Shown: piece by piece, positions 3,130 through 50,917 of the stretch
Numbering within the stretch: position 1 is the first letter of the stretch
Layout of the letters: each line of letters begins with the position of its first letter
Source of the DNA: an uncultured delta proteobacterium
GTDB lineage: Bacteria; Myxococcota_A; Polyangia; Fen-1088
Length of the DNA stretch: 64,000 nt
Assembly (NCBI GenBank): GCA_963737265.1
Contig: CAVTRY010000012.1
Location: 32,001 to 96,000 of the forward strand
Direction of reading: 5' to 3'
Position numbers and translations under genes: made by a program
Notes under the pieces: generated by a model
What the model was told of the DNA's origin: nothing
Databases searched by the model: none
The model's input: the letters and a program-made list of their open reading frames with translations, nothing else

Positions 3130-3311
3130 AGCCGGCGGGAGAGGCGCCAGCGGTGGCCGCTGCCAACAAGCGGGCCAGGAGCGGATCCTTCTCGCCCATG
3201 GTTTCGTCGGTGACGACGGTGACCTCACCGTCGCCGGGGGCGGTGACGAGGGTGATGACCCCGCGACGCTTTAGGAAGCGGAGGATGCGCTTACTGGCGC
3301 GCGCGACGATG
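3130..3311 (-). pseudogene. IS91-family transposase internal fragment (inverted)
   Basis: Reverse complement closely matches 46840-47085 (ARASKRILRFLKRRGVITLVTAPGDGEVTVVTDE). Confidence 0.8.
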
Positions 3312-3362
3312 CAGGCTTCCGTCCGCGCGTCTGCGGGCCACGTCGATGACGGTCAAGGCGAG

Positions 3363-3716
3363 CACACCGTCTGCCCTCGCTGCAAAACACCTCTGCGCCT
3401 CATCGCCATGATCGAGACCGAGGACACCATCAAGAAAATCCTCAAGGCCATGGGCCTGCCCACCTGTGCGCCAAAACTCTGGCCCGCACGACCGCCTCCC
3501 TCGCAATCTGGTGGCGAGGGCGGAGACTGGCTGAACTGACGGCACGTCGACAAGGGCGGGATCGAGTAGACTGCCTCGCGTGCTCGAAAACGCTCGAAAA
3601 CGCCCCGTCAGGCCCCAGAAACCCGGTCAAGTTCGCTGCGCGGTCGTGATAGGTCCCCACCTGATGCGGTCCGGCATGGTTCTCCGACGCTCAGAAAACC
3701 CCTTTGATTCGACTAT
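3363..3716 (+). mobile_element. IS91-family 3' fragment: transposase C-terminus plus oriIS-like end (copy 1)
   Basis: TVCPRCKTPLRLIAMIE...WPARPPP (stop 3539). Near-identical to 13889-14242. Ends CCTTTGATTCGACTAT before GGTC. Confidence 0.8.
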
Positions 3717-4245
3717 GGTCCTGCCCAGGTTGGTCACGTTTACACCCACGATGGTGCGCGGGCCGCCCATCTCCGAACCGGCAACCGCGTACTGCACGTT
3801 GTATCCGGGGCGGAAGCCGCCATCGCCCATCTTCATCACCCGGGCCTCGGCGTCAGTCGTCGACGCGCGGGCAGGTGAGTCCGACGGTGACCGGTGCGAC
3901 TGAAGCTCCGTCACCGTCGCGATCGCGGCCTCCACGCGACCCTCATAGTCCCTGGCCGCCGCCGCCCGCGCCGCATGCTGAGCGCGCGTGTACTCCGGGT
4001 CGTCCGCCGCGGCCAGCACCGCCTTCAGGTGCAGCTTGGCCTGCTGCCGGCATTGCAAGAGCGAACCGTAGCTCCGAAACGGCGGTGCGCTGGCCGCCGC
4101 TCGTGTCCGCGTCCCATCCTGTGCTACCACCGCCAGTGACAGCAGCCCCTGGTTCATCAGTGTCGCCAGGACGTTGGTCATCAATTCGTTGAGCGCCTCC
4201 CCGTGCCCTACGCGAAAACGCGACAGCGTCTGGTGGCTGAGCGCT
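3717..4245 (-). pseudogene. IS1182-family transposase fragment
   Basis: SHQTLSRFR, AQDGTRTRA and ASTTDAEARVMKMGDGGFRPGYNVQYA motifs. Both ends missing. Confidence 0.8.
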
Positions 4246-4414
4246 CTTTGGCTGGCACCCCGGTGCAGATTTCATCCGCGAGGGCAGCGTACTGCGCCGC
4301 CGATGTCTTCGCATTCGTTCCTGCAGCGCCAGTCTCGGCGTAGGCCGCAGCCCCCAGAGGGCTAGCAACGCCGACAACAACTAGCGAGAGCAATGTCCTT
4401 ACTTTAGTAGTCAT
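4245..4414 (-). pseudogene. N-terminal fragment of a secreted protein
   Basis: AGGAG RBS and signal peptide MTTKVRTLLSLVVVGVASPLGAAAYA, cut off by the IS1182 fragment. Confidence 0.45.
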
Positions 4415-4697
4415 GATGAATTCTCCTAGCTCCAGCCTTCTTTCGAGGCTGTGGATAAGACTCGTCAGCCGGATTAAAGGAGCGTTAAAACGCGATCGTG
4501 TGACGCCTCCTTATTGAGGCTGTCGACGCGCGGACAGATTTCTTCCCCTCGCCACCGGGTGGGCTCCTGGCACCCGGTGATGCTGGTGAAAATGGCACCC
4601 TCGGTCACCGCTGCGCCGCTGGCAACAGGCAATGGCCCAAACAGGAGAAACTAGGTCGTCTCCTCGGTGGAAAGACCCTCCACCTCGTGCACCCGCA

Positions 4698-7600
4698 TTA
4701 CCCTTTCGGGTTGCGCGGGGAAGGAGGCAGGTCCGCAAGCAACTGTTCGAGCTCTTCGAGGCTGGGTGGCTTGGCAAGATGCCGTTCGAACCCAGCCTGG
4801 GCCGAGCGCTGCTGGTCATCCGGGCTGGCGTACCCGGTCAGGGCCACGAGGAAGACTCCCTTGAGCGCGGCCTCAGCGCGGAATAGCCGCGCCACCTCGT
4901 AGCCATCCATCCCAACCAACCCGATGTCGCAAAGCACGACTTCCGGTTTGAATTCGCGCGCTCTGGCGATGCCCTCCGATCCCGTAGAAGCGATCGTAAC
5001 CTCGTGTCCACCTAGCTCGAGCGCCTCTCTCAGGCTTTGGGCGGAATCGACATTGTCTTCAATGATTAGAATTCGACGCCTGGAATGGGGCTCGGTCGGA
5101 GGGGAGGCGCTACCCGGCCCAGTTCCGGACGCTTCCCGCTCGATCGGTAGTCGCACCGTGAACTCGGCACCGGTTTCCGCACCATCGCTGTTGGCTGTCA
5201 CGGTGCCGCCGTGGAGCTCCACGAGTCCCTTGACGAGGGCGAGCCCCAGACCTAGGCCGCCTCGGCTACGGTCGAGCGTCCTGTCAGCTTGGATGAATGG
5301 CTCAAAGAGATGCGGCAGCATCTCAGCGCCTATTCCAACGCCGGAGTCGCGAACGCGGATGACTGCCACCCCTGCGACAAGATCCTTCTCGACCGAGATC
5401 GAAGTCTTTCCGCCCCGGCCCGTGAATTTGGAGGCGTTTTGCAGAAGATTGCCAATGACCTGCACAAGACGGGCCCCGTCGCCCTTCATCCAGATACGAT
5501 CCTCGGTAATCTGGACGTTAAGCTCCACTTCGTTTTGCGTGAACAGCAACCGATGATCCTCGACGGTGCGCCGAACCAGTTCGCAGAGCTCCAGCCGCTC
5601 ACACTGCAGACTGACCTTGCCCCGAGAGATCCGAGTCGTGTCGAGGAGGTCATCGATCAACCGAGTCATATGAGTCGTCTGCCGATCGATGATTCTGTGC
5701 GCCCGTTGCGCTTGTTCGCTACCTGGGACCGCTCGGTCCAGGATGTAGAGGCTGTTGCGGATGGGCGCAAGGGGGTTGCGCAGTTCATGGGAGAGCATGG
5801 CAATAAATTCGTTCTTGCGCTTATCAGCCTCCTCAAGGCCACACCGCGCTTCGACATGCTGGGAAGCGAGCGACGCTACGGCGGCGAGCTGTCGCAAAAA
5901 GGTCTCGTCTTCTTCGGTAAAATCGCCTTTCTCCTTGTCGGTTACCAGGATCATCCCATTCGTCCGCCCACGAATGTCCACCACACGTGCGCCGAGCAGT
6001 CCGCGCATGGGAACGTGCTCATCCGGCAACCCCCACCAGCGGGGATCTGCGCGCATCTCTGCGTCGGTAAGACGGATGCTCTCGGCGGCGCCTGCGACAA
6101 GCTCCGAATAAACGCCGCCCTTTTCGATCAAGAATTTCTTGCTTGGGGGACAGTCAGGCGTTCCCGTTCTCCGCGCCGAACTGCCAATGACAAATTGGCC
6201 ACCTACATAGCCATGGCCCACGACCGCGCTGCGTGCCCCGGTCAGTCCGAGCGCCGCTGTTGCGACCGTTTGGAGCATGCCATCGAGGGTCGTTTCGCGC
6301 ATTACCCCAAGCGAGTTTTCGACCAGGCGGTGAAGGCCCAGGCGTGAACCTTCGAGGGCAAGTTCGGCATTTTTGCCTTCGGTGATGTCGTGTATCACCG
6401 TCAGAACGAAGTTCTCCCCGCCGATGTCCACCCGATCGAGATTGATCGATAGAACGAGCCGGGCGCCGGATTTCGTGAGGCGTGAACATTCGAAGGCGCG
6501 GACCAAACCGCGCTGCTGCAGCTCGGCAGAAACACGTGTTTGCGACTCGACGTCAGCGATGCCGAGTTCCAGGCTGGTCTTTCCGAGAATCTCCTCGCGG
6601 GCACACTCGAACAGTCTCAAGAAGGCATCGTTGGCGCTCACAATGGTGCCATCCGCAAATTTCGTCAGCGCAATGGCGAACGGTGCATTATCGTGAATTG
6701 CAGAGAACCTTTGTTCGCTTTCCTGCAGTGCCTGCGTTGCGTGCTTGCTTTCGGTAATGTCTCGGTCCGACTCGAGGACGCGCTCGACGCCGTCGTCGCC
6801 CCGTACGAGTTGAAGCTTCGCCGAAACCACGACCGTCTGGCCGTCCTTGGTCTGGTTCGTGAGATCGCCGCTCCAACGTCCGTGTTTGCGCAGCGCGGTC
6901 TCGATTTCCGAGTTAGGGCATGGGTGAACCGTGTGTAGCAGTTCGTGCACCGCTTGTCCTCGGGTCTCCTCGATCGCGAAGCCGTAAAGCTCCTCGGCTC
7001 CGCGATTCCAGGTCTCGATACCGCCATCGAAACGCCGGACGAAGACGGCATCGGGCGAGAGCTTGAGGAGTTGGCCGTAGCGACGCTCGGCCTCCTCGGA
7101 GCGCAGTAGACCAGTGACATCTACAAATGTTAAGCCAACACCTGCAAGGCTGCCGTTCTGGATACGATACGGCAGGATGCGCATGAGAAACCAATTCTCG
7201 TCGTCGGTTGCCCGAATGTGCCGTTCGATGCCTTGTTCGGTCTGTAAGACGGTCTCAGCATCCGCGAACAGACTCGGGTGATGCACGCGGGGCGAGAGGT
7301 CGCTGATAGGACGTCCCACGTCACCCTCAACGAGGTGAAAGAGCGCAGTTGCTGCCGGCGTGAACCTCACGACGCGTAAGCTGCGATCGAGAAAGATGGT
7401 TGCGATCTTCGAGCTCGCCTGGTGGCTCTGCAGGTCGCTCTGGGCGATGTCGAGCGCCTGCATCTTCTCGCGCAGCTCATCGTTGACGGTTTGCAACTCT
7501 TCGCGCGAGCTTTGCAGTTCCTCGTTGGCGGATTGCAGTTCCTCGTTGGTCGAGAGCAACTCCTCGTTGGTGGACTTGAGCTCTTCGTTTGACGTTTCGA

Positions 7601-8738
7601 GGTCTTCGGTGAATGACTGGAGATCGGCGCGTATGGTGCGGTTCTCGTCCTCAAGTTGTTCGATGAGAAAGCGGTCGCGGCCCGGTCGTGTCTCGCCCGT
7701 GCTCTCGACATCGGGCACGACTTCGCTTTCTTGTAGCACCACCACATAGAGACCGGCGTCGGAAGGAAGACCGGGCAATGGTCGCACGGTCAGGCACAAG
7801 TGGCGAGCGTCGCCGCTCGTGTCGATAGGATCGACAGGGACATTCCTGCGCACGACGGGCAGTCGAGTCTTCGCGGCAGCCGCAAGGGCGGTGCGCAGTT
7901 CGAGACGCAGGCCGGTTTGCACCTGGTCGAGCAGGTTGTTGGTCGGCGCACCCTCGCGGGCTTGCAAGCAGCGGCTCGTTCTGCCCGCGAGATACAGGAT
8001 CTCGCCGCGCTCGTTCACTACAACGCAGGGCGGGGCATACTCCTCGCGAATCATCTTCTCTAAGGATTGGCTGAGCATCGGCAGCTGGCCGAGTGATCCC
8101 GCCTTCAGGGAGGACGTTGCCGAAACGCCCCGGGAAGGAGAGAGGCCGCCCAAAGGAAACTCGGGTGCCCGGACCAGTGCCTCCTTTCGACGAAAGAGCC
8201 GATGCTCGTGACTTACCTGGGTGAATAGGTCGTCGTGGGCCGCAAGGTCTTCCGATGGCCCGAGAAGGAGACATCCACCGGAGCGCAACGCGAAATGAAA
8301 CAGCGGCACCAGTTTCTTCTGCAGATCGGCGCTCAGGTAGATGAACACGTTTCGGCACGAGATAAGATCAAGGAAGAGAAAAGGTGGATCCTTGATGAGG
8401 CTATGCACCGAAAACGTGCACATATCCCGGAGCTCCTTCGCAACCAGGAAGGTGTTCTCCTCTCGGACGAAAAAGCGTTCAAGGCGTTCGAGAGAAACGT
8501 GCTGGCGAATCTCGTCCGCGTAGCGGCCATGCCGCGCGGTCGCCACGAGCTCGCTGTCGATATCGGTCGCGAAGATTTGGACCGCTCGCGATGATTGTTT
8601 GCGCGCAAGGTATTCGCGCGCGAGTATAGCTATCGAATAGGCTTCCTCGCCCGAAGCACAGCCTGGAACCCAGATGCGTGCGGGTGTGTTCGGATCGCCG
8701 CTTTCAAGGATCGCCGGGAGGCAAAGTTGTGCGAGGGC
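4698..8738 (-). pseudogene. CheR-PAS-GAF-histidine kinase-receiver part of a CheB/CheR hybrid kinase split by IS3
   Basis: WVPGCASGEEAYS, DLISCRNVFIY, NEEL heptads, PAS repeats, SHELRNPL H-box, GGLGLGL, terminal REC. Confidence 0.9.
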
Positions 8739-8806
8739 TGAAGTGGACCCCAAAAATGGGACCAGGAGCTAAGGTGTAGTCCGCCTCAACAACGAGGCAG
8801 GACACG

Positions 8807-9100
8807 ATGAAAACGAACCGCCAAAAGCACACAGCACTCTTCAAGGCGCAGGTAGCTCTCGAAGCCATGCGGGAGCAGGCAACGGTTGTGGAGATCGGGC
8901 GCCGATACAAGATCAACCCGAACCTGGTTCACAAGTGGAAGAAGGAAGCCGTCACACGGCTGGCCATGGTTTTCGAACCAGGCCATGCAAATGCAGAGGA
9001 ATCGGCGAACGCCGAACGCGAATCGGAATTGCTGCGCAAGGTGGGGCAGCTGACGCTGGAGAATGATTTTTTAGCACGCGGGCTCGCGCGCATTCGCTGA
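8807..9100 (+). CDS. IS3 transposase OrfA
   Basis: FKAQVALEA HTH, ELLRKVGQLTLENDFL zipper, slippery ATTTTTT near 9066. Confidence 0.9.
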   Translation: MKTNRQKHTALFKAQVALEAMREQATVVEIGRRYKINPNLVHKWKKEAVTRLAMVFEPGHANAEESANAERESELLRKVGQLTLENDFLARGLARIR

Positions 9101-9114
9101 CGGAGAAGCGCGCC

Positions 9115-9951
9115 ATGATCGAGCCCCACAACGACCTATCTGTCCGTCGGCAGTGCGAGCTGCTGAATCTTGCGAGATCGGGCATCTACTGGGAGCCGAT
9201 GCCGATGGCAGAGGAAGATCTGGCCATCTGCAAGGAGCTGGACAAGCTGCATCTCGAATTGCCAGCATTCGGCAGCCGGAAGCTGTCACGGTTGCTAAAG
9301 GCACAGGGGCAGACGGTGAATCGCAAACGGGTGCAGAGACTGATGCGAATCATGGGCATCGAAGCGCTGGCGCCCAAACCACGGACGACCGTCCCCGCGC
9401 CGGAACATACGAAATTCCCGTACTTGCTGCGCCATCTCGCGATCATTCGGCCCAATCAGGTGTGGGCCTCGGATATCACGTACATCCCGACGAGACAGGG
9501 GCATTGCTACCTGGTCGCCGTGATGGATTGGTACACGCGCCGGGTTCTGTCCTGGCGCATTTCAAACACGATGGACAGCCGTTTTTGCATCGAGGTCGTG
9601 GAAGAAGCTCTTGCGAACTTCGGCTTGCCGGAGATCTTCAACACCGACCAGGGGTCGCAGTTTACCGACGACAACTTCACATCGGTTTTGCTGGACAAGG
9701 GCGTAAAGGTCAGCATGGACGGTCGCGGCCGATTCATGGACAACATCTTCGTCGAGCGTCTATGGCGGTCTGTCAAATGCGAGGAGGTCTACTTGAACGA
9801 CTACCGAGACGTGGCCGACGCCCGCAGTGGCATCGCGATCTACCTGGACAAGTACAACCACAGGCGGCCTCACCAAACCCTTGGATTTCAGACACCCGTA
9901 GCGTTTTACGAATTCGAACTAAAGAAGTCGGCGATGAAAGAGGCCGCCTAA
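9115..9951 (+). CDS. IS3 transposase OrfB (DDE integrase core), probably fused to OrfA by -1 frameshift
   Basis: NQVWASDITYI, FNTDQGSQFT, DNIFVERLWRSVK. Confidence 0.92.
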   Translation: MIEPHNDLSVRRQCELLNLARSGIYWEPMPMAEEDLAICKELDKLHLELPAFGSRKLSRLLKAQGQTVNRKRVQRLMRIMGIEALAPKPRTTVPAPEHTKFPYLLRHLAIIRPNQVWASDITYIPTRQGHCYLVAVMDWYTRRVLSWRISNTMDSRFCIEVVEEALANFGLPEIFNTDQGSQFTDDNFTSVLLDKGVKVSMDGRGRFMDNIFVERLWRSVKCEEVYLNDYRDVADARSGIAIYLDKYNHRRPHQTLGFQTPVAFYEFELKKSAMKEAA

Positions 9952-10174
9952 ATCGCCGCTGCATCATGCTGATGGCACGCTGCCCACAACTGCAACGCGT
10001 TCACCTGCTTCTGTGGGGCCGTGCGCGCATTGCATCCGTGGACAGCAGCCATCAGCATGCCTCCGCTCTCAACAATTTCCTTGCCGGCGAGGCTCACCCG
10101 GATCTACAAACAAACCCACGCGGACTCTCTCTTAGCTCGGGCCATTTCTGGTCCTACCAAAGGGGTCCACTTCA

Positions 10175-11101
10175 GGCTTCGAACGCGTCCGCATCACGAA
10201 AGAAGTGCGTAACGCCGATCGAGAGATCCCGGACCAGCGCTTCCGCCTCTGCCACTTCCCGATCGAGGCGCTTGACGTAGTCGACGACCGAAGTAGCGTT
10301 TTGGATCCGGACACGTCGTCCGATTCGGCGAACCAGCGTGCCTTGCTTGTAGCGACCGAAATCGTGCCCCGTTTGCCGCAGCAAGATCTCACAGATGATT
10401 TGCAGGTGCGTAGTGATCTCGGCGTCGAACTGCTCAGCTGCCCCGCGCTGGTCCTCGGCCAAGTTGTGTGCGTGGGCCAGCAGGCGCGCAGGCATCTCCT
10501 CGACGAGCAGGGCATCGTCCACAAGCCCAGCTGCAATCGCGCTTTCCGGCATGCCCTCGTACTTGGCGGACTCAGGAGCTTGAGCGAGGGTCATGCCCCC
10601 GTGGTCCTTGATGGCGCGCAGGCCGCTGGTGCCATCGGTTCCGGTTCCCGACAGAACGATCCCGACAGCCGCCTCGCCTTGATCTTGGGCAAGGGAGCGA
10701 AAAAATGCATCTACTGGCGCGCGCACGCCAGCCTCGGCTGGTTTGGTGACCTTGAGGACGCCTCGCTCCAGCATTAGCACGGCATTCGGCGGGATCACAT
10801 AGACGTGGTTGGGACGAGCCCGCACGCCTTCCTCTGCCTGTTCGACGGGCATCTGCGTATACTTGCCAAGCAGCTCAGCGAGCACACTGGGATGGTGACG
10901 TTCGAGATGCTGGACAACCACGAAGGCGATCCCGCTGTCCTCGGGCACGTGGGCGAAGAACCGCTTCAGCGCCTCCAGCGCCCCCGCAGAGGCGCCGATG
11001 CCAACGAAGAGGCCACGCAGTGACCCCGGATTGGCCGTCCGCAGGTCGCTCGAACCGGATACCGTTGAGGGCCCTTTCACTAGAGCCCTTCGGTGCGCCA
11101 T
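10175..11101 (-). pseudogene. CheB methylesterase N-terminal part of the IS3-interrupted hybrid kinase
   Basis: GIGASAGA, VQHL, LSGTGTDG. Removing IS3 and one GGC restores FFRDADAFEA-LAQLCLP in frame. Confidence 0.9.
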
Positions 11102-11697
11102 GGTCGCAACGGTTTCATGTGTTCTTACCTGACTGGCCGCGAACAAAAGCATTCTGGATCCCTGGTGCGCAAAAGCAATGCCCGCGAGATAAAAGAAGAA
11201 GTTGTCCTCAGAATCGTGGACTATTTCTAGGCTGTAAACGAAACCACACGAGCGCGTGACCACGTTTGGCCTTCGCCGGAGCATTGCTGCCTCCAGTTCT
11301 TCAGAAACCAGGAAGATCTTCCCTTCGCTCCGCCGTTCTGGAGTCACACTTCCATAGGTTCTTTAGCTTTAGACAGTGATGGACCCCACTCCCTGCAGCC
11401 GACCTCGCCTGCGTGGCCTGCTTGCAGCCTGGACTGCTCTGCAAATCGTCCTGCTAGTCAGCACTTGCTGACCCAGACTCCGACATTGAGACCAGAATCT
11501 GGAGCTCCGAAGAAGGATCCCGCTATGGGTGGCACCGACTCGGGCAACCTCGCCACGGCCACGGTGATGTGATCGGTTCCGGGCGCATCAAGACCAATTC
11601 GGCAAACGTTGTGCCCCAGGGTCCGGGCGATATGTTCCGCAGAGTGAGCCATCCTGTTTGTCCTTGGCCTCCAGATTACCACGCTCCCGCGGGTAAC

Positions 11698-12964: not shown

Positions 12965-13179
12965 GTGAGTCGGTCGTAACCGTCCGCTGGTGGCCATCTC
13001 GCGGGTCACGGTAGAGTTTGGCAGTATGACCGGGACACGATGGATAGCGCGACGAAAAGCCCGGACTGCACTTCAGCCGACTGAGATCAAGGCTGGGAAT
13101 TTCTCGCACGCACTGCCACCGGCCAGATTTGTTGAAAGCGAATGGATCGGAAGCAGTCACTTAGCCGCGTTCTCGAAGG

Positions 13180-13408
13180 ACACCAACACCGTCTATATCA
13201 ACCCCGTGCGTATCGTGCTCGACCCAGACGCCACTCCCGTGGCCAAGGGCAAGCTATGCGGCCAGCAAGCCGGGTTTAACCTGCATGCTCAGACCAAGGT
13301 CGCCGCCAACGACAAGAAGGGTCGCGAGAACCTGTGCAAGTACATCTTGCGCCCGCCGCTGGCCAACGACCGCCTCAAGATCCTCGACGACGGTCACGTG
13401 AGGCTCCC
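13180..13408 (+). pseudogene. IS91-family transposase internal fragment
   Basis: GFNLHAQTKVAANDKKGRENLCKYILRPPLANDRL, the catalytic-Tyr region of Y2 transposases. Confidence 0.8.
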
Positions 13409-13860
13409 GAAGCGGTCCTCGCGTTGCTGGCGCTAGCGCGCGATCTCACCGGCGACGCGGTATTGGCGTTCGAGATGTTCTCGCGCTTTGCCCTGGAATT
13501 GGTCACGCGCTACGTTCCTGGAACCTCGGATCCTCTGGCGGCTCCTTCACCCTGGTATGTGCTGACCGACTTGACGGTTGCGCGCGCCACGGCTGAATCC
13601 TTCCTGGCGGAAGCGTTTGCCCAGGGTTTGGTCAGCGATGCGGTGCTGGCGGGAAGCGCGGCGCAAGCCAAGGCTCTGTGGAAGCTGCGCGAATCAATCT
13701 CGGAGTCGCAGAAACACGAAGGCGGCAGCATCAAGCACGACATTTCCGTGCCGGTGTCGCGCATCCCGGCCTTCATGCACCAAGCGCTGGCCGCTGCGAA
13801 AAAACTGATACCTGGCATCCGCCCCGTGCCCTTCGGTCACGTGGGCGACGGCAATCTGCC
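13409..13860 (+). pseudogene. Internal fragment of an FAD-linked oxidase (D-2-hydroxyacid dehydrogenase-like)
   Basis: LWKLRESISESQKHEGGSIKHDISVPVSRIP and VPFGHVGDGNL. No own start or stop. Confidence 0.8.
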
Positions 13861-14242
13861 CCAGCTTCTGAAAAAAACGTTCGAGATCGACACCGTCTGC
13901 CCTCGCTGCAAAACACCTCTGCGCCTCATCGCCATGATCGAGACCGAGGACACCATCAAGAAAATCCTCAAGGCCATGGGCCTGCCCACCTGTGCGCCAA
14001 AACTCTGGCCCGCACGACCGCCTCCCTCGCAATCTGGTGGCGAGGGCGGAGACTGGCTGAACTGACGGCACGTCGACAAGGGCGGGATGGAGTTGACTGC
14101 CCCGCGTGCTCGAAAACGCTCGAAAACGCCCCGTCAGGCCCCAGAAACCCGGTCAAGTTCGCTGCGCGGACGTGATAGGTTCCCACCTGATGCGGTCCGG
14201 CAGGGTTCTCCGACGCTCAGAAAACCCCTTTGATTCGACTAT
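13861..14242 (+). mobile_element. IS91-family 3' fragment plus oriIS-like end (copy 2)
   Basis: QLLKKTFEIDTVCPRC...DWLN stop 14065. Same terminal motif followed by GGTC. Confidence 0.8.
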
Positions 14243-14418
14243 GGTCCCTTTAATTCGCCTATGGTCGCGGCCGTGCAGAGAGCTGAACACCCAGGGGCAC
14301 TCGCCCAGATGGCCGCTTCACTCAAGCGCAAGGTCAAAGAGATGACCACGACCAGCCGAAGAAGCCAGTTCTTGTTCGAGCGTCGCAGACTGCGGCCCGT
14401 GACCTCGGGAGATGGTCT

Positions 14419-31084: not shown

Positions 31085-31273
31085 CAGGGCCATCGCATCA
31101 TCCTACATCGACGCAGGATCCATCAGAGTCTCGGCCATTTCTGGAAGGTTTTCCCCTGGGGTCGGTGCGCGCGCCGGTGTGCAGGCAGGTTCGGCAGCGC
31201 GCACGGGCGCGGAGACCGGCATAACTATCGGCATCTCCGCAAGATCACTTACAATTTAGATGCGTTGGCCCTG
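31085..31273 (-). mobile_element. ISAs1-type MITE (copy A)
   Basis: Near-exact reverse complement of 48259-48448. Ends CAGGGCCATCGCATC / GATGCGTTGGCCCTG. Confidence 0.88.
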
Positions 31274-31494
31274 AAGTGGACCCCTTTGGTAGGACCAGAA
31301 ATGGCCCGAGCTAAGAGAGAGTCCGCGTGGGTTTGTTTGTAGATCCGGGTGAGCCTCGCCGGCAAGGAAATTGTTGAGAGCGGAGGCATGCTGATGGCTG
31401 CTGTCCACGGATGCAATGCGCGCACGGCCCCACAGAAGCAGGTGAACGCGTTGCAGTTGTGGGCAGCGTGCCATCAGCATGATGCAGCGGCGAT

Positions 31495-32331
31495 TTAGGC
31501 GGCCTCTTTCATCGCCGACTTCTTTAGTTCGAATTCGTAAAACGCTACGGGTGTCTGAAATCCAAGGGTTTGGTGAGGCCGCCTGTGGTTGTACTTGTCC
31601 AGGTAGATCGCGATGCCACTGCGGGCGTCGGCCACGTCTCGGTAGTCGTTCAAGTAGACCTCCTCGCATTTGACAGACCGCCATAGACGCTCGACGAAGA
31701 TGTTGTCCATGAATCGGCCGCGACCGTCCATGCTGACCTTTACGCCCTTGTCCAGCAAAACCGATGTGAAGTTGTCGTCGGTAAACTGCGACCCCTGGTC
31801 GGTGTTGAAGATCTCCGGCAAGCCGAAGTTCGCAAGAGCTTCTTCCACGACCTCGATGCAAAAACGGCTGTCCATCGTGTTTGAAATGCGCCAGGACAGA
31901 ACCCGGCGCGTGTACCAATCCATCACGGCGACCAGGTAGCAATGCCCCTGTCTCGTCGGGATGTACGTGATATCCGAGGCCCACACCTGATTGGGCCGAA
32001 TGATCGCGAGATGGCGCAGCAAGTACGGGAATTTCGTATGTTCCGGCGCGGGCACGGTCGTCCGTGGTTTGGGCGCCAGCGCTTCGATGCCCATGATTCG
32101 CATCAGTCTCTGCACCCGTTTGCGATTCACCGTCTGCCCCTGTGCCTTTAGCAACCGTGACAGCTTCCGGCTGCCGAATGCTGGCAATTCGAGATGCAGC
32201 TTGTCCAGCTCCTTGCAGATGGCCAGATCTTCCTCTGCCATCGGCATCGGCTCCCAGTAGATGCCCGATCTCGCAAGATTCAGCAGCTCGCACTGCCGAC
32301 GGACAGATAGGTCGTTGTGGGGCTCGATCAT
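31495..32331 (-). CDS. IS3 OrfB (copy 2)
   Basis: Same protein as 9115-9951. Confidence 0.92.
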   Translation of the reverse strand: MIEPHNDLSVRRQCELLNLARSGIYWEPMPMAEEDLAICKELDKLHLELPAFGSRKLSRLLKAQGQTVNRKRVQRLMRIMGIEALAPKPRTTVPAPEHTKFPYLLRHLAIIRPNQVWASDITYIPTRQGHCYLVAVMDWYTRRVLSWRISNTMDSRFCIEVVEEALANFGLPEIFNTDQGSQFTDDNFTSVLLDKGVKVSMDGRGRFMDNIFVERLWRSVKCEEVYLNDYRDVADARSGIAIYLDKYNHRRPHQTLGFQTPVAFYEFELKKSAMKEAA

Positions 32332-32345
32332 GGCGCGCTTCTCCG

Positions 32346-32639
32346 TCAGCGAATGCGCGCGAGCCCGCGTGCTAAAAAATCATTCTCCAGCGTCAGCTGC
32401 CCCACCTTGCGCAGCAATTCCGATTCGCGTTCGGCGTTCGCCGATTCCTCTGCATTTGCATGGCCTGGTTCGAAAACCATGGCCAGCCGTGTGACGGCTT
32501 CCTTCTTCCACTTGTGAACCAGGTTCGGGTTGATCTTGTATCGGCGCCCGATCTCCACAACCGTTGCCTGCTCCCGCATGGCTTCGAGAGCTACCTGCGC
32601 CTTGAAGAGTGCTGTGTGCTTTTGGCGGTTCGTTTTCAT
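32346..32639 (-). CDS. IS3 OrfA (copy 2)
   Basis: Same protein as 8807-9100. Confidence 0.9.
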   Translation of the reverse strand: MKTNRQKHTALFKAQVALEAMREQATVVEIGRRYKINPNLVHKWKKEAVTRLAMVFEPGHANAEESANAERESELLRKVGQLTLENDFLARGLARIR

Positions 32640-32710
32640 CGTGTCCTGCCTCGTTGTTGAGGCGGACTACACCTTAGCTCCTGGTCCCATTTTTGGGGTC
32701 CACTTCACCC

Positions 32711-33998
32711 CAGGGTCATCGCATCTAAATCCCGAACGATCTTCGCGGTATAGCCGGCGCACCAGAGAGGAACGTTTTTTGATTGAAGGGCGATATCGTG
32801 GCTTGTTCGTAAGTCATGAAGCGAACAACCGTGGCGGAACGAGAAAAGGAAGAGCTGGCGGCATCGATCCTGGAGTACTTCGCGTCGGTGCCGGATCTGC
32901 GGGTGGAGCGGACGCGGCACCACGCGCTGACGGACATCCTGATGCTATCGTTGTGTGCCGTGGTCTGTGGTGCTGACTCCTTCTGTGCTATCGAGACCTA
33001 TGGGCGGGCAAGAGAAGCCTGGTTACGAACGTTTATCGGTCTGCGCGGCGGGATTCCCACACACGACACCATCGGGAGGGTGTTTGCAGCCCTGAATCCA
33101 GATGCCCTGGCTGAGAGGTTCCGGCAGTGGATCTTGAGCGTGGCGCGACTCACGAAAGGCGAGGTCGTGGCCATCGACGGCAAGACGCTGCGACGATCCT
33201 TCCAAGAGGCCGGCAGCCACGCTTTCGTCCACATGGTTAGTGCCTGGGCCACCAACAACCACGTGGTTCTTGGGCAGGTCAAGACAGAGGAGAAATCCAA
33301 CGAGATCACTGCCATTCCGCGGTTGCTCAAGCTCCTGAAGATCAAGGGCTGTCTAGTAACTATCGATGCGATGGGCTGCCAGAAGCAGATCACCGCAGAT
33401 ATCCAGGACGCCGACGCGGATTACCTGCTCGCGGTGAAGGAGAACCAACCCACGCTCAGCGCTGAAGTGACGACAATCTTCGCGCATTGTCGTCGCGACC
33501 CGACGGGATTGGACGTGGATTTTCACGAGACACGCGATGTTGGGCACGGACGAACCGAGGTTCGCCGGTGCTGGACCACAAACATGGTCGAGAGCATCTC
33601 CCAGTACCAGGAATGGACGGGTCTGAGCAGCTTGGTATTGATCGAGTCCGAGCGCACGGTCTCGGGGCACACTTCAACCGAGTGCCGCTACTACATCAGT
33701 TCGCGAAAGAACCTCCCAGCAGATGCCGCTCTCGACGCCGCTCGGAAGCACTGGGGAATCGAAAATGAATTGCACTGGGTTCTCGACGTCACTTTCCGTG
33801 AGGACGAATGCCGTGTTCGCGCCGGCAACGCCGCCCAGAACTTTGCAGTGATGCGCCACATCTCACTCAACCTCCTCAAATCAGTCAAAGACTGCAGGCT
33901 CAGCATCAGGCTTCGCCGAATGCGCGCGGCATGGGATCAGGACTTCATTCTGCAAGTCCTCATGGCCCAACCCGATGTGGGATGATGCGATGACCCTG
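32711..33998 (+). mobile_element. ISAs1-family insertion sequence (1288 bp)
   Basis: TIRs CAGGGTCATCGCATC / GATGCGATGACCCTG. 10-bp TSD CACTTCACCC at 32701-32710 and 33999-34008. Confidence 0.95.
32816..33985 (+). CDS. ISAs1-family transposase
   Basis: AIDGKTLRRS, KSNEITAIP, TIDAMGCQ, HWGIENELHWVLDVTFRED. Confidence 0.95.
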   Translation: MKRTTVAEREKEELAASILEYFASVPDLRVERTRHHALTDILMLSLCAVVCGADSFCAIETYGRAREAWLRTFIGLRGGIPTHDTIGRVFAALNPDALAERFRQWILSVARLTKGEVVAIDGKTLRRSFQEAGSHAFVHMVSAWATNNHVVLGQVKTEEKSNEITAIPRLLKLLKIKGCLVTIDAMGCQKQITADIQDADADYLLAVKENQPTLSAEVTTIFAHCRRDPTGLDVDFHETRDVGHGRTEVRRCWTTNMVESISQYQEWTGLSSLVLIESERTVSGHTSTECRYYISSRKNLPADAALDAARKHWGIENELHWVLDVTFREDECRVRAGNAAQNFAVMRHISLNLLKSVKDCRLSIRLRRMRAAWDQDFILQVLMAQPDVG

Positions 33999-44118: not shown

Positions 44119-44248
44119 CGTTCGATTGATCTAAGAACACGTGGCGGTCCGGACTTGTTGAAATCTTCTATCAACGCCACCTCTTGGCGGCGTGTTTTCC
44201 GTCCATGATGACTTTCACTAGGACGTTCATAGTCTCAAATGGGCACCG

Positions 44249-45278
44249 TTGGCTCTCATCTTCGTCGCAGCCTGCTCTGCGCCTGCAACAAGTGATGTCT
44301 CGGGTGATGCGCCGATTCCAGCGGCCTACCAAGCATTCGCCGCAGCCTTCGACCAGGAGCGACAGCAGCTCGGTATCCCCGGCGCGTCCGTCGCGCTCAT
44401 CCAAAATGGCACCGTCACCTTCGCCCACGGCTTCGGGACCAAGGGACCAAGCAGCAAAGAGCCGGTGGGTTCGAGCACGCTATTCCGCATCGGCTCGATG
44501 ACGAAGGCACTCACGGCGACGGCGCTGCTTGGCCTGGTTCAGTCGGGAAAAGTCAGTCTCGACACGACCCTGACGAGCGTCGTTCCCGACGTTGCGATAG
44601 GCGACGCCAGCGATCCGTCCACCTTGACGATCCGCCAACTCCTCACGCGCCAATCGGGACTCTACGATTACCTCGTCTGGGATGGCCCGACGGACGACTC
44701 GGCCCTGTCCCAGTTTCTCACCAGCCCAGCGTACGCGGCGAATGAGTATTTCATGGACCCTCCGGGTACCTTTTACAATTACGCAAACCCCGACTTTTAC
44801 CTGGCAGGTCTCGCGCTTGAGCGCGTAGGCGGCGTCCCGTATCGGCAAGCGCTGGCCGAGCCAGTGTTCGCGCCGCTCGGGATGACGCGCACGTTTTTCC
44901 TGCCTACCGAGGTCATCGCCGATGGCGACTTCGCCGACGGAAAGTCGACCATGTCGGACGGCACCCCCTAGGACGTGCGGCCAGACTCGTACAACAACGC
45001 CTGGGCCCGCCCGTGCGGCTACGCGTTCTCGAGCGTGGTGGACTACGCCAAGTTCGTACAGTTCCTCTACGCTGGGAACGCATCGGTACTGGCAGACAGC
45101 GAACACAGCGTACGACCACACATTGCAGCCGACCTCGATGGACAACTTCATCGTGACTGTGCAAGGCAGCCCGCTCCCACTCACCTTCATCGCCGATTCG
45201 ACTGGGGCCTACGTGTGGATCCGCACCCGGATCGCCGTGGTGAAACGGGTATTGAACAACGGGGGAACGGCCCCCTAG
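44249..45278 (+). pseudogene. Serine hydrolase (beta-lactamase family) with internal stop and ~440-bp deletion
   Basis: FRIGSMTK (SxxK), YNYAN, TAG at 44969. The 3' part matches 58575-58679 then jumps to 59123-59299. Confidence 0.85.
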
Positions 45279-45690
45279 GTTCGTCGAGTGCGACGGCGAA
45301 GGAAGGCCAGAACGCCGAGGGAAAGCAAACCAAGGATCGCCGATCGCCGGTCTGAAACACCCGCGCCGACGGCGAAGGAACAAGCCAGGGGCTCGCGAGA
45401 ATAGGCTGAAGAACTGTCCAAAAATTGGACAGTTCTTCAGCAGCCGAGCCAAGGGCTCGGCCGCAGGTGGGGTGAAGTCCGCGAATTTACTTCGCGGACG
45501 AGGGGAGGGCAGCGGCCCAGGCAGCGGCCCTCCCTTCAAAAATCTTCAAGACGGGTCCATTTATGGACACGTCTTGAGTTGTCGGCGTAGCTTCCTGACT
45601 GCATGTTGTTCTCCAGCGCCAGAACATTGCTGGCTTCGGTCGACAAGTCGGCGTCTTCGAGTGTGGCCGACTCCGATAGCAGCATGGTTC
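45275..45690 (-). pseudogene. Duplicated 3' end of the VWA lipoprotein gene, interrupted by a MITE
   Basis: Matches 59296-59543 apart from the 165-bp insert and an extra TGA. Confidence 0.88.
45410..45574 (+). mobile_element. 165-bp hairpin MITE (copy B)
   Basis: Imperfect TIRs AGAACTGTCCAAAAAT / ATTTATGGACACGTCT, TGA TSD. Empty site GGC-TGA-GTTGTC visible at 59425-59436. Confidence 0.9.
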
Positions 45691-45691
45691 T

Positions 45692-45825: not shown

Positions 45826-46124
45826 CCCGATGCCGATTCTTGGCGCCAGAAGTCCCAGGCGCCCTCGAAGAAAGGCAAGTAGCAGACACGGACCGGCGGC
45901 TCTCCTCGCGCACCTCGCGAGCCGCGCGCGAACGCCGCCCTGGCCGCCGGCGCTAACGTATTTCTGCCCCAAGAGCCGCCACCGCCGCAGCCTGGTCGCC
46001 GCCGTGGCCGCCTGCCTCAACCAGCGCGACAGCGAACCGGCCCCGGACGAAACCGGACGAAGGCGCGGGGCGCTGAGGGCGTGCTCAAGCAACTTCCGTG
46101 ACCCGCTGACCGACATCCTCCTTC

Positions 46125-47110
46125 GTGGAGGCAGCAGCATGCGCAAAACCTGCGACCGGCTACAGCTATGCCCGCCGGGAGCCTGAGAAGACCGCGCTCT
46201 TCCAGGTGCTCCAGCAACACCTTCTGACCTTCGAGCAAGAGTGGACCGACAAGTCCGACGGCCGCACGCTGCCCAGCTTCGTGACCGACGAGCTGCACGA
46301 CTTCCTAGGCTGTGGCATCCTCGCGCGGGGCTTCGCGCAACTTTTGTGTAAGACCTGCCACCAGCGGTATGCGGTGGCCTGGAGCTGCAAAGGTCGCGGC
46401 TTCTGTCCGAGCTGCGGCGGCAGACGCATGAACGCGGGCGCGTTGACTCTGGTCGACCACGTGCTGCCCGAAGTGCCTATCCGACAATTCGCGACGGGCG
46501 CGGCGAAGCCGCGTGGGGCAGGGGCAGGGCGGGCAGGCCCTAGTTACGCTGCCCTTCTCGCTGAGATTTCCGTTGGCCTTCGATGGGCAATTACTCGGCC
46601 AAGTCCTGCGCATCTCCATCGACACCGTAGCGTCGAGCTATCGCAAGCGCCTGGCAGATCGGGGGATTGCCGACGGCGAGTGTGGCGCCGTCACGGTCGT
46701 CCAGCGCGCCAACAGCGACCTGCGTCTCTCACCGCATTTTCATGTCCTCCAGCTCGATGGCGCGTACGCCCCTGGCCGCGACGGCGGTTCCCCCATCTTC
46801 CACCCGGCGCCGGAACTTACCCAAGAGGACGTCCTTGCCATCGTCGCGCGCGCCAGCAAACGCATCCTCCGCTTCCTAAAGCGTCGCGGGGTTATCACCC
46901 TCGTCACCGCGCCCGGCGAGGGCACGCGCGAAGCGCGTGGGGTGGGTAGGTGGAGGGGTAGGTCCCGAAGTCCCCGAAGGGGGAGACGGTGAGGTCACCG
47001 TCGTCACCGACGAAAACCATCGCCGAGAAAGATCCTCTCCTGGCCCGCTTGATGGCCGCAGCCACCGCTGGCACCTCGCCCGCCGGCCCCGCGCACAAGC
47101 GCGCTCCCGT
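46125..47110 (+). pseudogene. IS91-family transposase N-terminal part with two short insertions
   Basis: Zn-binding CGILARGFA/CKGRGFCPSCGGRRM and HUH motif PHFHVL. Frame broken at about 46492 and 46920. Confidence 0.9.
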
Positions 47111-47425
47111 GCGCATCGTGTTGTTGTCGTGGCGGCCGGCCGGTCTCGGTTTCGGGTGCGGGATTTGATCGATCTCACCGCACTGGTGGGGAGGCTTCGC
47201 AGGTGAGAGCGACGCGCGTAGCGGCGGAAGTGTGTAAGGCCATTTTTGCCGTCTGTGTAATTGTGATTATGCCGTCCTGTGGTCAGGGTGGCACTTCAAA
47301 TGGCACGATGAGTGCACATTTCAGCGTCTGCATCCACTGCCCTGCCTGGCGATTTTGGGTTGACATCTCTACTTGCGACGGCGTTAATAGAGTTACACCA
47401 CCTTCCAGCCACCCTGGAGACGCCC

Positions 47426-47893
47426 ATGAGCAAAGCCAAGCCCTCCGACCCCAAGCTCGCAGCCCTGCGACAACACGGCTGCCTCAATCCCCATCCGGAC
47501 AAGGTCGCCGATCCGATCTTCGCCTCCTCCGACTTCTTCGACCCCCGCGATCTGGTCCAGGTCAAGTACGAGATGGTGCGGCGTGTGCGCGTGGACGGAC
47601 AGCCTGTCAGCCACAGCGCCGCCGCGTACGGATTCTCACGTCCCGCGTTCTATCAAGCGCAAACCGTTCTCGACCGCGGCGGCCTGGCGGCTCTGGTGCC
47701 GAGAAAGCCAGGACCGCGACGGTCGCACAAGCTGAGCACGGACGTGATGGAGTTTCTACAGCGAGAGCGGTCCACGGATTCGTCGCTGCGCCCGCCGGAC
47801 TTGGCACGCCTGGTTCTGGAGCGTTTCGGCCGCAAGGTTCATCCTCGCAGCGTCGAACGGGCGCTCACACGACAGGAAAAAAAACGGCGGTGA
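47426..47893 (+). CDS. HTH protein associated with a large serine recombinase
   Basis: FFDPRDLVQVKYEMVRRV, YGFSRPAFYQ, KPGPRRSHKL, VHPRSVERAL. Confidence 0.75.
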   Translation: MSKAKPSDPKLAALRQHGCLNPHPDKVADPIFASSDFFDPRDLVQVKYEMVRRVRVDGQPVSHSAAAYGFSRPAFYQAQTVLDRGGLAALVPRKPGPRRSHKLSTDVMEFLQRERSTDSSLRPPDLARLVLERFGRKVHPRSVERALTRQEKKRR

Positions 47894-47996
47894 TCGTTTC
47901 GCCCGCGGCAACGGGTGGCAGCGACACCGCCATCGCGGAGTACGAAGAGTTGCGCTGTCGCGTTACCTTGGCAGCAGGACGAAGGGAGATGACGAC

Positions 47997-50258
47997 ATGA
48001 ACTCCGAAGGACATCAGAAAGTCACCACCAGCCACCTCAAGCGGGATGCCTATCTGTACGTCAGGCAGTCGACGGTCCGGCAGGTCATTGAGAATACCGA
48101 GAGCACGCAGCGGCAGTATGCTCTCCGCCAGCGTGCCGTTGCTTTGGGCTGGCCAAACGATCGGATCATCGTCATCGACACAGATCTCGGCCAGTCAGGA
48201 GCTTCCGCGGTCGACCGCGTGGGTTTCCAGAAGCTCGTGGCCGAGGTCGGGATGGGGCCAGGGCCAACGCATCTAAATTGTAAGTGATCTTGCGGAGATG
48301 CCGATAGTTATGCCCGGTCTCCGCGCCCGTGCGCGCTGCCGAACCTGCCTGCACACCGGCGCGCGCACCGACCCCAGGGGAAAACCTTCCAGAAATGGCC
48401 GAGACTCTGATGGATCCTGCGTCGATGTAGGATGATGCGATGGCCCTGGGGATGGGGCACGCCGGTATCGTGCTTGGCTTGGAGGTCTCTCGACTGGCGC
48501 GCAATTCCACTGACTGGCACCGATTGCTCGAAGATCTGCGCACTGACCGACACCTTGATTCTCGACGAGGATGGCATCTACGACCCCGCGCACTTCAACG
48601 ACCGGCTGTTGCTCGGGCTCAAGGGAACGATGAGTGAAGCCGAGTTGCACGTCTTGCGAGCTCGCCTGCGCGGCGGCACCATCAACAAGGCGCGCCGGGG
48701 CGAATTGCATTGTCGCCTACCTGTTGGCTTCGTCTACGACGGTGGCGGGCGCGTCGTCCTTGATCCGGACAAGCAAGTGCAAGAGAGCGTGCGATTGCTG
48801 TTCGCGACTTTCGCACGAACAGGGGCAGCGCATGCCACGCTCAAGTACTTCCGACAAGAGAAGCTGCTATTCCCCACACGTCTGGGTGCCGGGGCGAGCA
48901 AGGGTGAGCTGGCTTGGACGCCGCTCAGCCTGGCACGCACTGCCAGCATCCTGCACAACCCGTGGTATGCGGGCGCGTACGCATTCGGTAGAAACCGCTG
49001 GCGAAAAAGACCGGACGGAAGCAACTCCTGCCGACGAGAACGCTTACCGCGCGCCGAGTGGCTTGCTCTGCTTCGGGATGCCCACCCCGCGTACATCTCG
49101 TGGGAAGAGTACGAGCGCATCGACCAGCGCTTGCAGGCCAGTGCCAAGTCCCTCGGCTGGGAGCGAGGCCGGGAATCTCCTCGTGAGGGTCCAGCCCTGT
49201 TGCAAGGACGCACGATCTGCGGACTCTGCGGCTGCCGAATGGGCGTTCACTACAACACTCGACGCTCAGGTCAGCTCATTCCCAACTATGTGTGCTCCGG
49301 ACACGGCCGTCTCCTTGGCGACGGCTCATGCCAGAGCATTCTGGGAACGGAAATCGACGCAGCCGTCAGCAAGTTGCTGGTCGAGGCCGTGACACCGATG
49401 GCGCTCGAAATGACCCTCGCCATCCAGCAGGAGATCGCGGCCCGCCTCGACGAGGCCGATCGGCTGCGCCACCGCCAAGTCGAGCGAGCCCAGTACGAGG
49501 CTGACCACGCCCGCCGTCGCTACATGCAGGTGGATGGCGCCAACCGGTTGGTCGCAGATTCACTGGAAGCAGAGTGGAACGCCAAGCTGCGTGCGCTTTC
49601 CAAGGCCCAGGAGGAATACCTGCGCCAGCACGAGGCCGACCGACTCGCCGTCGGCAAGGATGAACGCCAGCGCATCCTCGCTCTCGTCACGGATTTCCCC
49701 GCCGTCTGGCGTGACCCCAATACGCCCCAGCGCGAGCGCAAGCGCATGCTCGCGCTTCTGATCGAAGACATCACCCTGATCAAGCGGCGCGAAATCACCG
49801 TGAAGATCCGCTTCCGCGGCGGTGCAACCACTACCTTGACACTGCCTCGTCCACTCACGCCCCAGCAACTGCGTGCCACACATCCCGAAGTCCGTCAGCA
49901 GATCGACGCCCTCCTCGACGAGTACACCAACGCTCAGGTCGCCAACCAACTCAACAAGCAACAGATGCGCACCGGCACTGGCGAGTCCTTCGATGCCGTG
50001 AGCGTCCAGTGGGTACGCTTCTCGGCCAAGCTCAAGAGTCTCAAGGAACGACTCATCGAAGCTGGCTGGCTGACAAGTAAGCAGGTCGCTGCCCTGCTCG
50101 GCGTCAGCCTTTCGACCGTCAGTAGTTTGCGCAACAACGGGCGCCTCAAGGGACGTATATGCAGCGACAAAGGCGAGTGGCTATACTGGCCATCCGACAT
50201 CCCCACAAGTCCTTCACCAACACCAACTGTTACATCCACTGCGAGAGGTGCAATATGA
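47997..50258 (+). pseudogene. Large serine recombinase interrupted by an ISAs1 MITE, with a further frameshift near 48530
   Basis: YLYVRQST (catalytic Ser), DLGQSG, SRLARN, LKGTMSEAE, CGLCG Zn ribbon, C-terminal HTH. Confidence 0.9.
48259..48448 (+). mobile_element. ISAs1-type MITE (copy B, 190 bp)
   Basis: TIRs resemble the ISAs1 at 32711-33998. 10-bp TSD GGGATGGGGC at 48249-48258 and 48449-48458. Confidence 0.93.
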
Positions 50259-50622
50259 AAAGCGATCCTTCGAGATCGACACCGTCTGCCCTCGCTGCAA
50301 AACCCCGCTGCGCCTCATCGCCATGATCGAGACCGAGGACACCATCAAGAAGATTCTCTCTGCCATGGGCTTGCCCACCGAGCCGCCCAACCTCTGGCTC
50401 GCACGGCCGCCACCCTCGCAATCTGGTGGCGAGGGCCGAGACTGGTTGAACTGACGGCACCTCGACAAGGTCGGGATGGAGTAGACCGCCCTGCGTGCTC
50501 GAGAAAGACCCCGTCAGGCCCCCAAAACCCGGCCAGGTGCGCTGCGCCAACGTGATCGGGGCCGACATGCTGCTGTCCGGCAGGGTTCTCCAACGCTCAA
50601 AATACCGCTTCGAATCGCCTAT
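50259..50622 (+). mobile_element. IS91-family 3' fragment plus oriIS-like end (copy 3, diverged)
   Basis: KRSFEIDTVCPRC...DWLN stop 50454. Ends GCTTCGAATCGCCTAT before GGCC. Confidence 0.8.
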
Positions 50623-50917
50623 GGCCGGCGATGTAGCGGCGCAAAGCCGCAATACCGTGCTGGTAGCAACGGTCGCGCAATTCGAGTAACAGGCGAGGCG
50701 CAGTCAACTCGGGCAACGCCGTCAGTCGCTTGACAATGTAGGGTTTGAAGGGCTCCATGATGCCCTTGCTGGCTGGCCGCTCGCTCTGGGTGTCGTCGGC
50801 CAGCGCCCTACGCACCGTCGAGTGGTGAACGCCGAATCGACGAGCCACGGTCTCAATGGGCAGCTTGTCGAGCAACACCAGGCGGCGCATTTGAGCGCGC
50901 AATTCGGCGGTGATCAT
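50623..50917 (-). pseudogene. istA: IS21 transposase N-terminal fragment
   Basis: IETVARRFGVHHSTVRRAL, MEPFKPYI, LTAPRLLLEL. Confidence 0.75.

Follow-up and report, generated by a model that had tools for sequence, protein, structure and literature searches.

Probable ori-end remnants of an ISCR-like insertion sequence family with a variable left end in a mosaic stretch of DNA from an uncultured delta proteobacterium

What has assembled a stretch of DNA in which three copies of the same transposase end are each preceded by something different? The question is raised by the window, by which we mean the whole stretch of 64,000 nucleotides (nt) analysed here, positions 32,001 to 96,000 of contig CAVTRY010000012.1 (C12 below) in the assembly of an uncultured delta proteobacterium (GCA_963737265.1; 6.55 Mb, 25 contigs, 63% G+C; genome G000). 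A first-pass annotation, made from the letters alone, had read the three repeats as IS91-like, non-autonomous rolling-circle derivatives, each placed at a GGYC target and each having captured the DNA upstream of it. Our reading, to which we give a probability of roughly 0.7, is that the three repeats are ori-end remnants of a single ISCR-like insertion sequence (IS) family, belonging to the IS91 family, with a variable left end. The window around them is a dense mosaic of IS21, IS3, IS4/5, ISAs1 copies and of MITEs (miniature inverted-repeat transposable elements), and the point for annotation is that this mosaic consists mostly of nested mobile elements and not of three independent captures.

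The repeats themselves were found as first described. They form one three-member direct-repeat family (3364-3663, 13890-14189 and 50279-50578), in which the terminal CTAT finishes at 3716 (copy 1), 14242 (copy 2) and 50622 (copy 3) and is followed by GGTC (3717-3720), GGTC (14243-14246) and GGCC (50623-50626) respectively. Over 353 nt, BLAST gives copy 2 98.3% and copy 3 83.0% identity to copy 1. The common unit is the last ~69 codons of a 501-amino-acid transposase (C12:45856-46062 matches residues 433-501) together with a non-coding tail of 170-180 nt. The DNA before the tail is also different in each case, as had been claimed: an inverted transposase piece (3131-3311) in copy 1, an FAD-oxidase_C fragment (FAD, flavin adenine dinucleotide) in copy 2 and a large serine recombinase in copy 3. 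What had been overlooked are further transposase pieces on the far side of the supposed cargo, at 13205-13405 in copy 2 and at 45966-47120 in copy 3. Two full-length copies were used as references for mapping, A (C8:25986-27723) and B (C23:543107-545019), with reference coordinates counting back, as negative numbers, from the ori end at 0. On this scale the features are as follows.

1..3130, plus strand: IS21-family element with its left end outside the window; IstA 272-1990, IstB 1956-2708 (Pfam Mu-transpos_C_2, IstB_IS21)
3131..3311, minus strand: inverted internal transposase piece, reference A -1031..-851 at 96% (inverted repeats I4 and I6)
3312..3363, plus strand: 52-nt filler, an exact (100%) copy of unique sequence at C17:75307-75358, its sole other copy in the genome
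3364..3720, plus strand: copy 1, the final 353 nt of the element, in which CTAT finishes at 3716, then GGTC (sequence, BLAST)
13205..13405, plus strand: internal transposase fragment, reference -830..-629 at 99.5% (Pfam Y2_Tnp on the open reading frame 12990-13433)
13406..13859, plus strand: 454-nt FAD-oxidase patch, 99.3% identical to C14:346907-347360, in place of 233 nt of the transposase gene
13860..14246, plus strand: copy 2, last 383 nt of the element (CTAT end 14242) and GGTC (sequence, BLAST)
14247..14266, plus strand: stutter, 16 nt left over from an older ori end that belonged to another subfamily, with its own GGTC (sequence at the end of copy 2)
45966..47120, plus strand: copy 3 head, the upstream region and 5' two-thirds of the transposase gene, reference -1823..-817 (Pfam Zn_Tnp_IS91, Y2_Tnp)
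47121..50273, plus strand: remnant of an integrative element, 98% identical to intact sister-species copies and with the same junctions
50274..50626, plus strand: copy 3, transposase 3' end resumes, ori tail (CTAT end 50622) and GGCC (sequence)

Assignment to the IS91/ISCR family, already proposed at first reading, is borne out by an intact 501-amino-acid copy, in which Pfam recognises Zn_Tnp_IS91 (4.9e-15) and Y2_Tnp (7e-23). The best curated model is that of NCBIfam ISCR element clade Ia (NF052416; E 2.7e-89); because its score of 300 bits is far below the cut-off of 925, the transposase is a relative that lies outside this narrow clade, and the NCBIfam IS91 model likewise scores 89.8 bits, below its cut-off of 125. 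Alignment shows H188 and H190 of the HUH motif and Y335 to be invariant in all four sequences compared, namely a plasmid ISCR, two local copies and a local but distant paralogue, with a single tyrosine in the motif; ISCRs have one catalytic tyrosine and IS91 has two. The closest plasmid ISCRs are ~36% identical at the protein level, and a DNA search of the tail against plasmids gave no match. Relatives of the transposase were present in 30 of the 41 genomes searched, among them 11 of the 12 other species of the genus. When references A and B were mapped onto the present genome they produced ~60 fragments at ~35 loci, of which only three copies (one on C8, two on C23) keep the transposase gene open. 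Alongside this family there is another, distantly related lineage of ISCR-like transposases, which has 43-49% identity to the first and several copies here (C12:3331-4629, C23:5185-6483, C11:1331370-1332827, C13:568958-570169 and others) and in relatives.

The right end of the element is fixed. It lies 170-180 nt past the transposase stop codon, and a distance of 167 bp is given for ISCR8-type elements in the section of PMC5737581 that deals with them. Scanning the genome for the ori-end motif returned 30 matches, from which three that looked spurious by eye and one at a contig end were set aside; the scan may overlook degenerate ends, such as those at C14:364195 and C13:257994. Tabulated over the 26 scorable ends, the 4 nt after CTAT are far from random: GGTC 17, GGCC 5, GGGC 1 and TGAT 3, so that 22 of 26 are GGTC or GGCC, against background frequencies of 0.58% and 0.95%. 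Sister genomes repeat the pattern, with GGCC after all 13 ends on one contig of G008, each with a different continuation, and after all four ends in G001. Flanks beyond the 4 nt differ among ends, and the tetranucleotide tracks the subfamily of the end sequence, one tetranucleotide per subfamily. A known plasmid ISCR shows comparable behaviour, in that 35 of the 40 matches listed stop at query positions 661-665, four bases (ACTC) past CTAT. As a candidate for the subterminal imperfect palindrome of IS91/ISCR ori ends, one of 7 bp may be read at 22-45 nt from the end and shows up in one minus-strand fold; the folds are no stabler than those of shuffled sequences (z 0.1 to 1.8). At the three TGAT ends CTAT has had its final T replaced, apparently by the start of a group II intron. 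The intron at C14:431211-431405 (Rfam RF02003, 106 bits) starts directly at the ISCR-like ori end; the sequence at C23:258199 starts in the same way, and the third end, C20:39301, has identical first bases. In the plasmid record that we examined, a group II intron gene adjoins an ISCR there too.

Whether the tetranucleotide is a target is another matter. The first-pass annotation had spoken of a GGYC target, and while the near-invariance of these bases stands, their role as a target is doubtful. Homologues of the flanks that lack an insertion were found for four ends: C11:494297 for the end at C14:367034, with the bases AGCA at that point; C23:541407 for that at C8:25986, with TCCA; intact transposase sequence for that at C11:664105, with GGCG; and, for the G008 copy at 130898, a gene of the present genome whose translation reads as a probable malic enzyme, with CCTA. 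GGYC is absent from all four, and none of the four is a clean empty site. A further hint comes from stacked ends. The stutter behind copy 2 has counterparts at C19:10046, C14:364195 and C14:418414, in each of which every end keeps its own tetranucleotide, and a pre-existing target would not produce such a pattern. We therefore lean towards GGYC being carried by the element and not by the target, and the comparisons above suggest that this may be so. The flanks of the 13 G008 copies were compared with this genome and with 140 kb of the contig from which they come, and two loci of this genome with relatives, and no clean empty site was found; in one of the comparisons with relatives homology just stops within a diverged intergenic region. 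The absence of a target-site duplication, also claimed at first, holds for nine of the 10 sister-genome copies with both junctions defined, which show repeats of 0-3 nt, and not for the tenth, which has a repeat of 5 nt. Joining flanks in silico in search of restored reading frames gave two long frames, one without Pfam support and the other an implausible protein, and when the subterminal sequence was inspected by eye for a guide-like complement to the tetranucleotide, no consistent covariation emerged; neither idea was retained.

The left end, by comparison, is loose. In G008, 12 same-strand copies within 130 kb of one contig share upstream DNA at 99.5-100% identity over lengths of 40, 41, 88, 443, 652, 808, 922, 1120, 1264 and 1266 nt and, in two copies, at least 3000 nt; past the break the left flanks are unrelated. 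Judging by its translation, the shared DNA appears to include fragments of Fe-S cluster assembly genes. Similar ladders occur in the present genome, where four B-type copies reach leftwards to -1913, -2704, -3212 and at least -3695 and three A-type heads to -1924 and, twice, -2253. The B-type copies take in a 200-amino-acid open reading frame and the 3' part of a gene for a GH2 glycosidase, and in the longest of them the reading frame of that gene carries on past the -3213 boundary. No terIS, that is, no defined left end, was recognised in these ladders, which are without a common motif, and the two of 12 G008 copies that stop 40-41 nt upstream of the common core may point to a weak terminator. 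Nested left ends at ~100% identity combined with a constant right end are the pattern expected of copying that starts at ori and terminates loosely. The G008 cluster (contig C9, 7.5-131 kb; loci L018-L024) comprises 11 full-length copies, a further copy that the serine-recombinase element has split and a tail of 129 nt. They occupy one strand over ~125 kb, and the cluster is likely to be a hot spot of recent local transposition.

Tails have also moved gene fragments to new places. C14:426907 and C11:1290108-1290494 have 386 nt in common at 97% identity. Upstream of the recognisable tail at C14:426907 there are ~277 nt, at least 163 of which are the 5' end of a gene native at C11:1290108, with orthologues in five relatives; since these first 163 nt are native to the C11 gene, the C14 copy carries a transplanted gene fragment before its tail. 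Two copies on C11 have an identical joint between cargo and tail with 539 and 387 nt of cargo, and a third, tail-less copy of the cargo DNA lies nearby. Together with the ladders, these cases confirm at the level of the family what had been suggested for the window, namely that there are non-autonomous derivatives bearing gene fragments. One sub-lineage of defective ISCR copies is marked by insertions of 59-67 nt at fixed places (window 46923-46981, C23:539342-539400, C14:368367-368425, C19:5884-5942), three or four of which are present in C23:538502-540510, a full-length yet broken copy; as such insertions are found almost only inside these elements, the broken lineage has multiplied.

In the window itself, the foreign DNA has another history. 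Copy 3 spans 45966-50622, its head consisting of two pieces (45966-46922 and 46982-47120) on either side of the 59-nt insertion, which is common only to other defective copies. Its supposed cargo, the serine recombinase module, had been taken as captured DNA and is, on sequence comparison, a separate site-specific integrative element that invaded the transposase gene. The intact insert of 3333 nt (~3.35 kb with its right-hand half-site) splits the transposase gene beside a TTCGA core in both G008 and G001, its junctions are identical in G008, G001, the window and contig C15, and finding the same 3.3-kb insert at the same transposase site in other species contradicts captured cargo as the origin of the module. 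It encodes a DUF5372 protein, a 330-amino-acid open reading frame and a 686-amino-acid large serine recombinase with Resolvase, Recombinase, zinc-ribbon and HTH_17 domains (from the intact G008 copy). There is one intact insert in G008 (L021:6357-9689), while G001 has three with both flanks and two with the right flank, and G010 has a relative at 80%. Across species the insert is 98-99% identical, compared with 81-91% for the elements that host it, and on C15 it sits within a tail only 69.5% like reference B. A literature search found no paper on a DUF5372/serine-recombinase element. The insert of the window has decayed: its first 204 nt are missing along with transposase positions -817..-365, as are ~197 nt internally, and a 190-nt MITE at 48259-48449 splits the recombinase gene and cuts off the resolvase domain. 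This MITE-like repeat recurs at 99.5% identity at 31084-31273 (inverted) and in at least 20 further places in the genome; the C15 copy of the recombinase gene lacks it, and a ~10-nt overlap there suggests the target duplication of the MITE.

Copy 1 and copy 2 contain patches. In copy 1 the right end of the IS21 element, whose segment 2900-3130 has three genome copies at 100%, abuts the inverted transposase piece, and 3131-3311 lines up across the IS21 element with a minus-strand copy at C12:30287-31141. The tail of copy 1 (3364-3716) is 100% identical to the end of that inverted copy (C12:30287-30639), so the layout is one of two outward-facing ori ends placed head to head and joined by the filler. 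The inverted piece is thus present as described, and what lacks support is its reading as picked-up upstream DNA; it appears to belong to a second, inverted copy, apparently split by IS21. No element adjoins the C17 source of the filler. A comparable layout of inverted piece, 395-nt filler and tail is found at C11:668068-668888. In copy 2, the fragment 13205-13405 is collinear with the tail (13860-14242, reference -396..0), and the patch between them is an internal part of an intact FAD-linked oxidase gene (C14:346199-347608) with FAD_binding_4 and a complete FAD-oxidase_C domain, from which it differs at three of 454 positions. Orthologues of this gene in nine sister species are 73-80% identical and the composite of patch and transposase occurs in none of the 41 genomes searched, which together indicate that the patch was copied recently, in this lineage. 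The genome map places no ISCR-like element near the parent gene, and read-through from a neighbour can therefore not explain the patch. In both copies, what had been read as upstream cargo is an internal patch from a non-adjacent locus, set between transposase pieces, and at the blunt joints the two sides have 0-1 nt in common. Two candidate makers of these joints were discarded: internal GGTC at truncation points fits the right break of copy 2 roughly and none of the others; as for the serine recombinase, its TTCGA core is 5 and 25 nt away from the breaks, which are not at the core itself, and copy 2 has kept the site intact.

Other genes of the window are split as well. Two identical, inverted IS3-family copies of 1442 nt lie at 8735-10176 and 31270-32711, the former splitting a large CheB/CheR-PAS-GAF-histidine kinase-receiver gene (10175-11347 and 4701-8753). 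A beta-lactamase-family gene (PF00144) exists as two halves 13 kb apart (44249-44968 and 58090-59112), beside which are three 100% identical direct-repeat blocks (repeats 44998-45690 and 58575-59543).

In proposing a mechanism, we need to account for both the constant right end and the patches. By analogy with IS91, the enzyme would nick the fixed ori end, which lies 170-180 nt downstream of the transposase gene, and rolling-circle replication would peel one strand leftwards through that gene. If copying ends at no fixed place, daughters would have the right end in common and extend leftwards by different lengths; some would carry pieces of upstream genes and those that stop early would be tails and nothing else. 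Copy 3 is such an element, invaded at TTCGA by the 3.35-kb serine-recombinase element and then subject to a deletion and a MITE insertion. Copy 1 is a 353-nt tail facing a second, inverted copy apparently split by IS21, the two joined through 52 nt from another contig, and copy 2 has exchanged 233 nt of its transposase gene for a 454-nt copy of part of the distant, intact FAD oxidase gene. For these last two we favour the inference that the growing strand switched to a distant template and back. The wider proposal, that ISCR-type elements switch templates while being copied and so stitch together distant gene pieces or their own opposite strand, with the 4 nt being the last bases of the transferred strand, is one that we consider unlikely as it stands.

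The main rival to a template switch in copies 1 and 2 is ordinary double-strand-break repair or illegitimate recombination with filler DNA, in which the joints of copies 1 and 2 would have nothing to do with the transposase and would reflect an island crowded with insertion sequences. We regard this as possible if somewhat doubtful. In its favour are the dense packing of the window with IS21, IS3, IS4/5, ISAs1 and MITE copies, the blunt joints, the missing termination motif at the ladder break points and the left edge of the copy 2 fragment, which coincides with a site where other copies have a small insertion. Against it, both patches lie inside elements of one family and are each followed by an intact ori end, two copies are connected head to head at one joint by arms 100% identical, as a strand switch would give, and a similar arrangement of inverted piece, filler and tail recurs at the C11 locus described above.

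The strict form of the earlier reading, with each tail a non-autonomous rolling-circle element that met a GGYC target and captured its upstream DNA by read-through, has in its favour that such capture does occur in the family and that the tetranucleotide is nearly invariant; we nonetheless judge it improbable. The upstream DNA of copy 3 is a site-specific serine-recombinase element present at the same site in other species, collinear transposase sequence resumes beyond the 'cargo' of copies 2 and 3, no element from which read-through could have come lies beside the FAD parent gene or the C17 source, and GGYC is absent from the four uninserted homologues. An artefact of assembly, with the joints being false joins at repeats, might be suspected given that the assembly is in 25 contigs and the tails are repeats of 350-380 nt present in multiple copies, that the 52-nt filler is identical to its source and that metagenome contigs reach parts of the transposase and not the FAD joints. 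Since the FAD patch is not identical to its parent, has unique combinations to either side of it and has structural parallels on other contigs and in other genomes, we think this highly improbable.

Several observations weigh against our own account of an active, loosely terminating element with template switching, and they are best taken together. The activity of the element is deduced from its copies; neither a circular intermediate nor a new insertion was seen. Ladders could in principle be explained by segmental duplication followed by truncation from the left, no termination motif recurs at ten ladder break points, and many tails have simply been cut by the insertion of other elements, so that not every tail is a product of early termination. 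Without a clean empty site, each 'insertion' may be a more complex event than it seems. The patches in the window number only two, and nothing ties them to the transposase in preference to ordinary break repair. In copy 1, the two sides of IS21 overlap by ~17 nt that are not identical, which means that the inverted piece and the C12:30287 copy may come from two different elements. Finally, when contigs from four metagenome runs were compared over 13100-14300 (no run contained more than 0.27 of the sampled words), they covered transposase parts only, and in them ordinary transposase sequence continues past 13405 and 13861.

The interest of this lineage lies in the fact that ISCRs are credited with moving many resistance genes and that, according to the statement on this point in PMC6218425, no ISCR element had as of 2018 been experimentally shown to transpose. 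What we offer is clean natural evidence of an ISCR copying itself: a dozen copies, nearly identical, whose one end is fixed and whose left ends form a ladder, and tails that have carried gene fragments to new places. In addition, there is the hint that the 'target' tetranucleotide travels with the element, and the ISCR is in turn home to other mobile elements, of which a serine-recombinase element targets its transposase gene and a group II intron its ori end. These, with the natural ladders, are the noteworthy features, for a fixed end and loose left termination are already known or proposed for ISCR and IS91, and this is a further member of that family.

Known systems resemble this one in different ways. 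For the IS91 family, the account in PMC13181058, in the parts concerned with mechanism, gives a fixed oriIS with a tetranucleotide beside it, no target duplication, and one-ended transposition when termination fails; IS91, IS801 and IS1294 share with the present elements this rolling-circle logic. According to the same part of that source, IS91 finds CTTG and GTTC in its target and uses them about equally, whereas here there is one tetranucleotide per subfamily, it is missing from four of four uninserted homologues, and there is no recognisable terIS. Helitrons are eukaryotic rolling-circle transposons that capture gene fragments and have a Rep-helicase fusion protein and Helitron-type ends. 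The 'Helitron-like' label of the first-pass annotation holds as an analogy of outcome only, in that there are chimeric copies holding short pieces of host genes from elsewhere; it fails for the machinery, which is a bacterial 501-amino-acid protein without a helicase domain, with ends in CTAT plus GGYC that are not those of Helitrons, and two patch events in the window. Template switching, should it prove right, would give bacteria their own equivalent of the 'filler' capture of Helitrons. The insert of copy 3 resembles small integrative elements with large serine recombinases in its Resolvase, Recombinase and zinc-ribbon domains and in the use of one short core in independent hosts, and differs from them in that its attachment site is the 3' part of another mobile element's transposase gene and in its DUF5372 gene and 330-amino-acid open reading frame. 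With the ISCR elements (ISCR1, ISCR2, ISCR8 and others) the element shares its domain set and the HUH motif with a single tyrosine, both as in a plasmid ISCR, and it has a similar end motif of CTAT plus four fixed bases (ACTC in a plasmid ISCR; GGTC or GGCC here). One-ended transposition of IS91-type elements, with co-mobilised upstream DNA and a left end that is not fixed, is described in the relevant portions of PMC13181058 and PMC5737581, and the carriage of upstream DNA from no fixed left end is a further trait in common. It is set apart by ~36% protein identity and a score of 300 against 925 bits for clade Ia, and by its setting: an environmental genus in which up to a dozen intact copies share one contig and no resistance genes accompany them.

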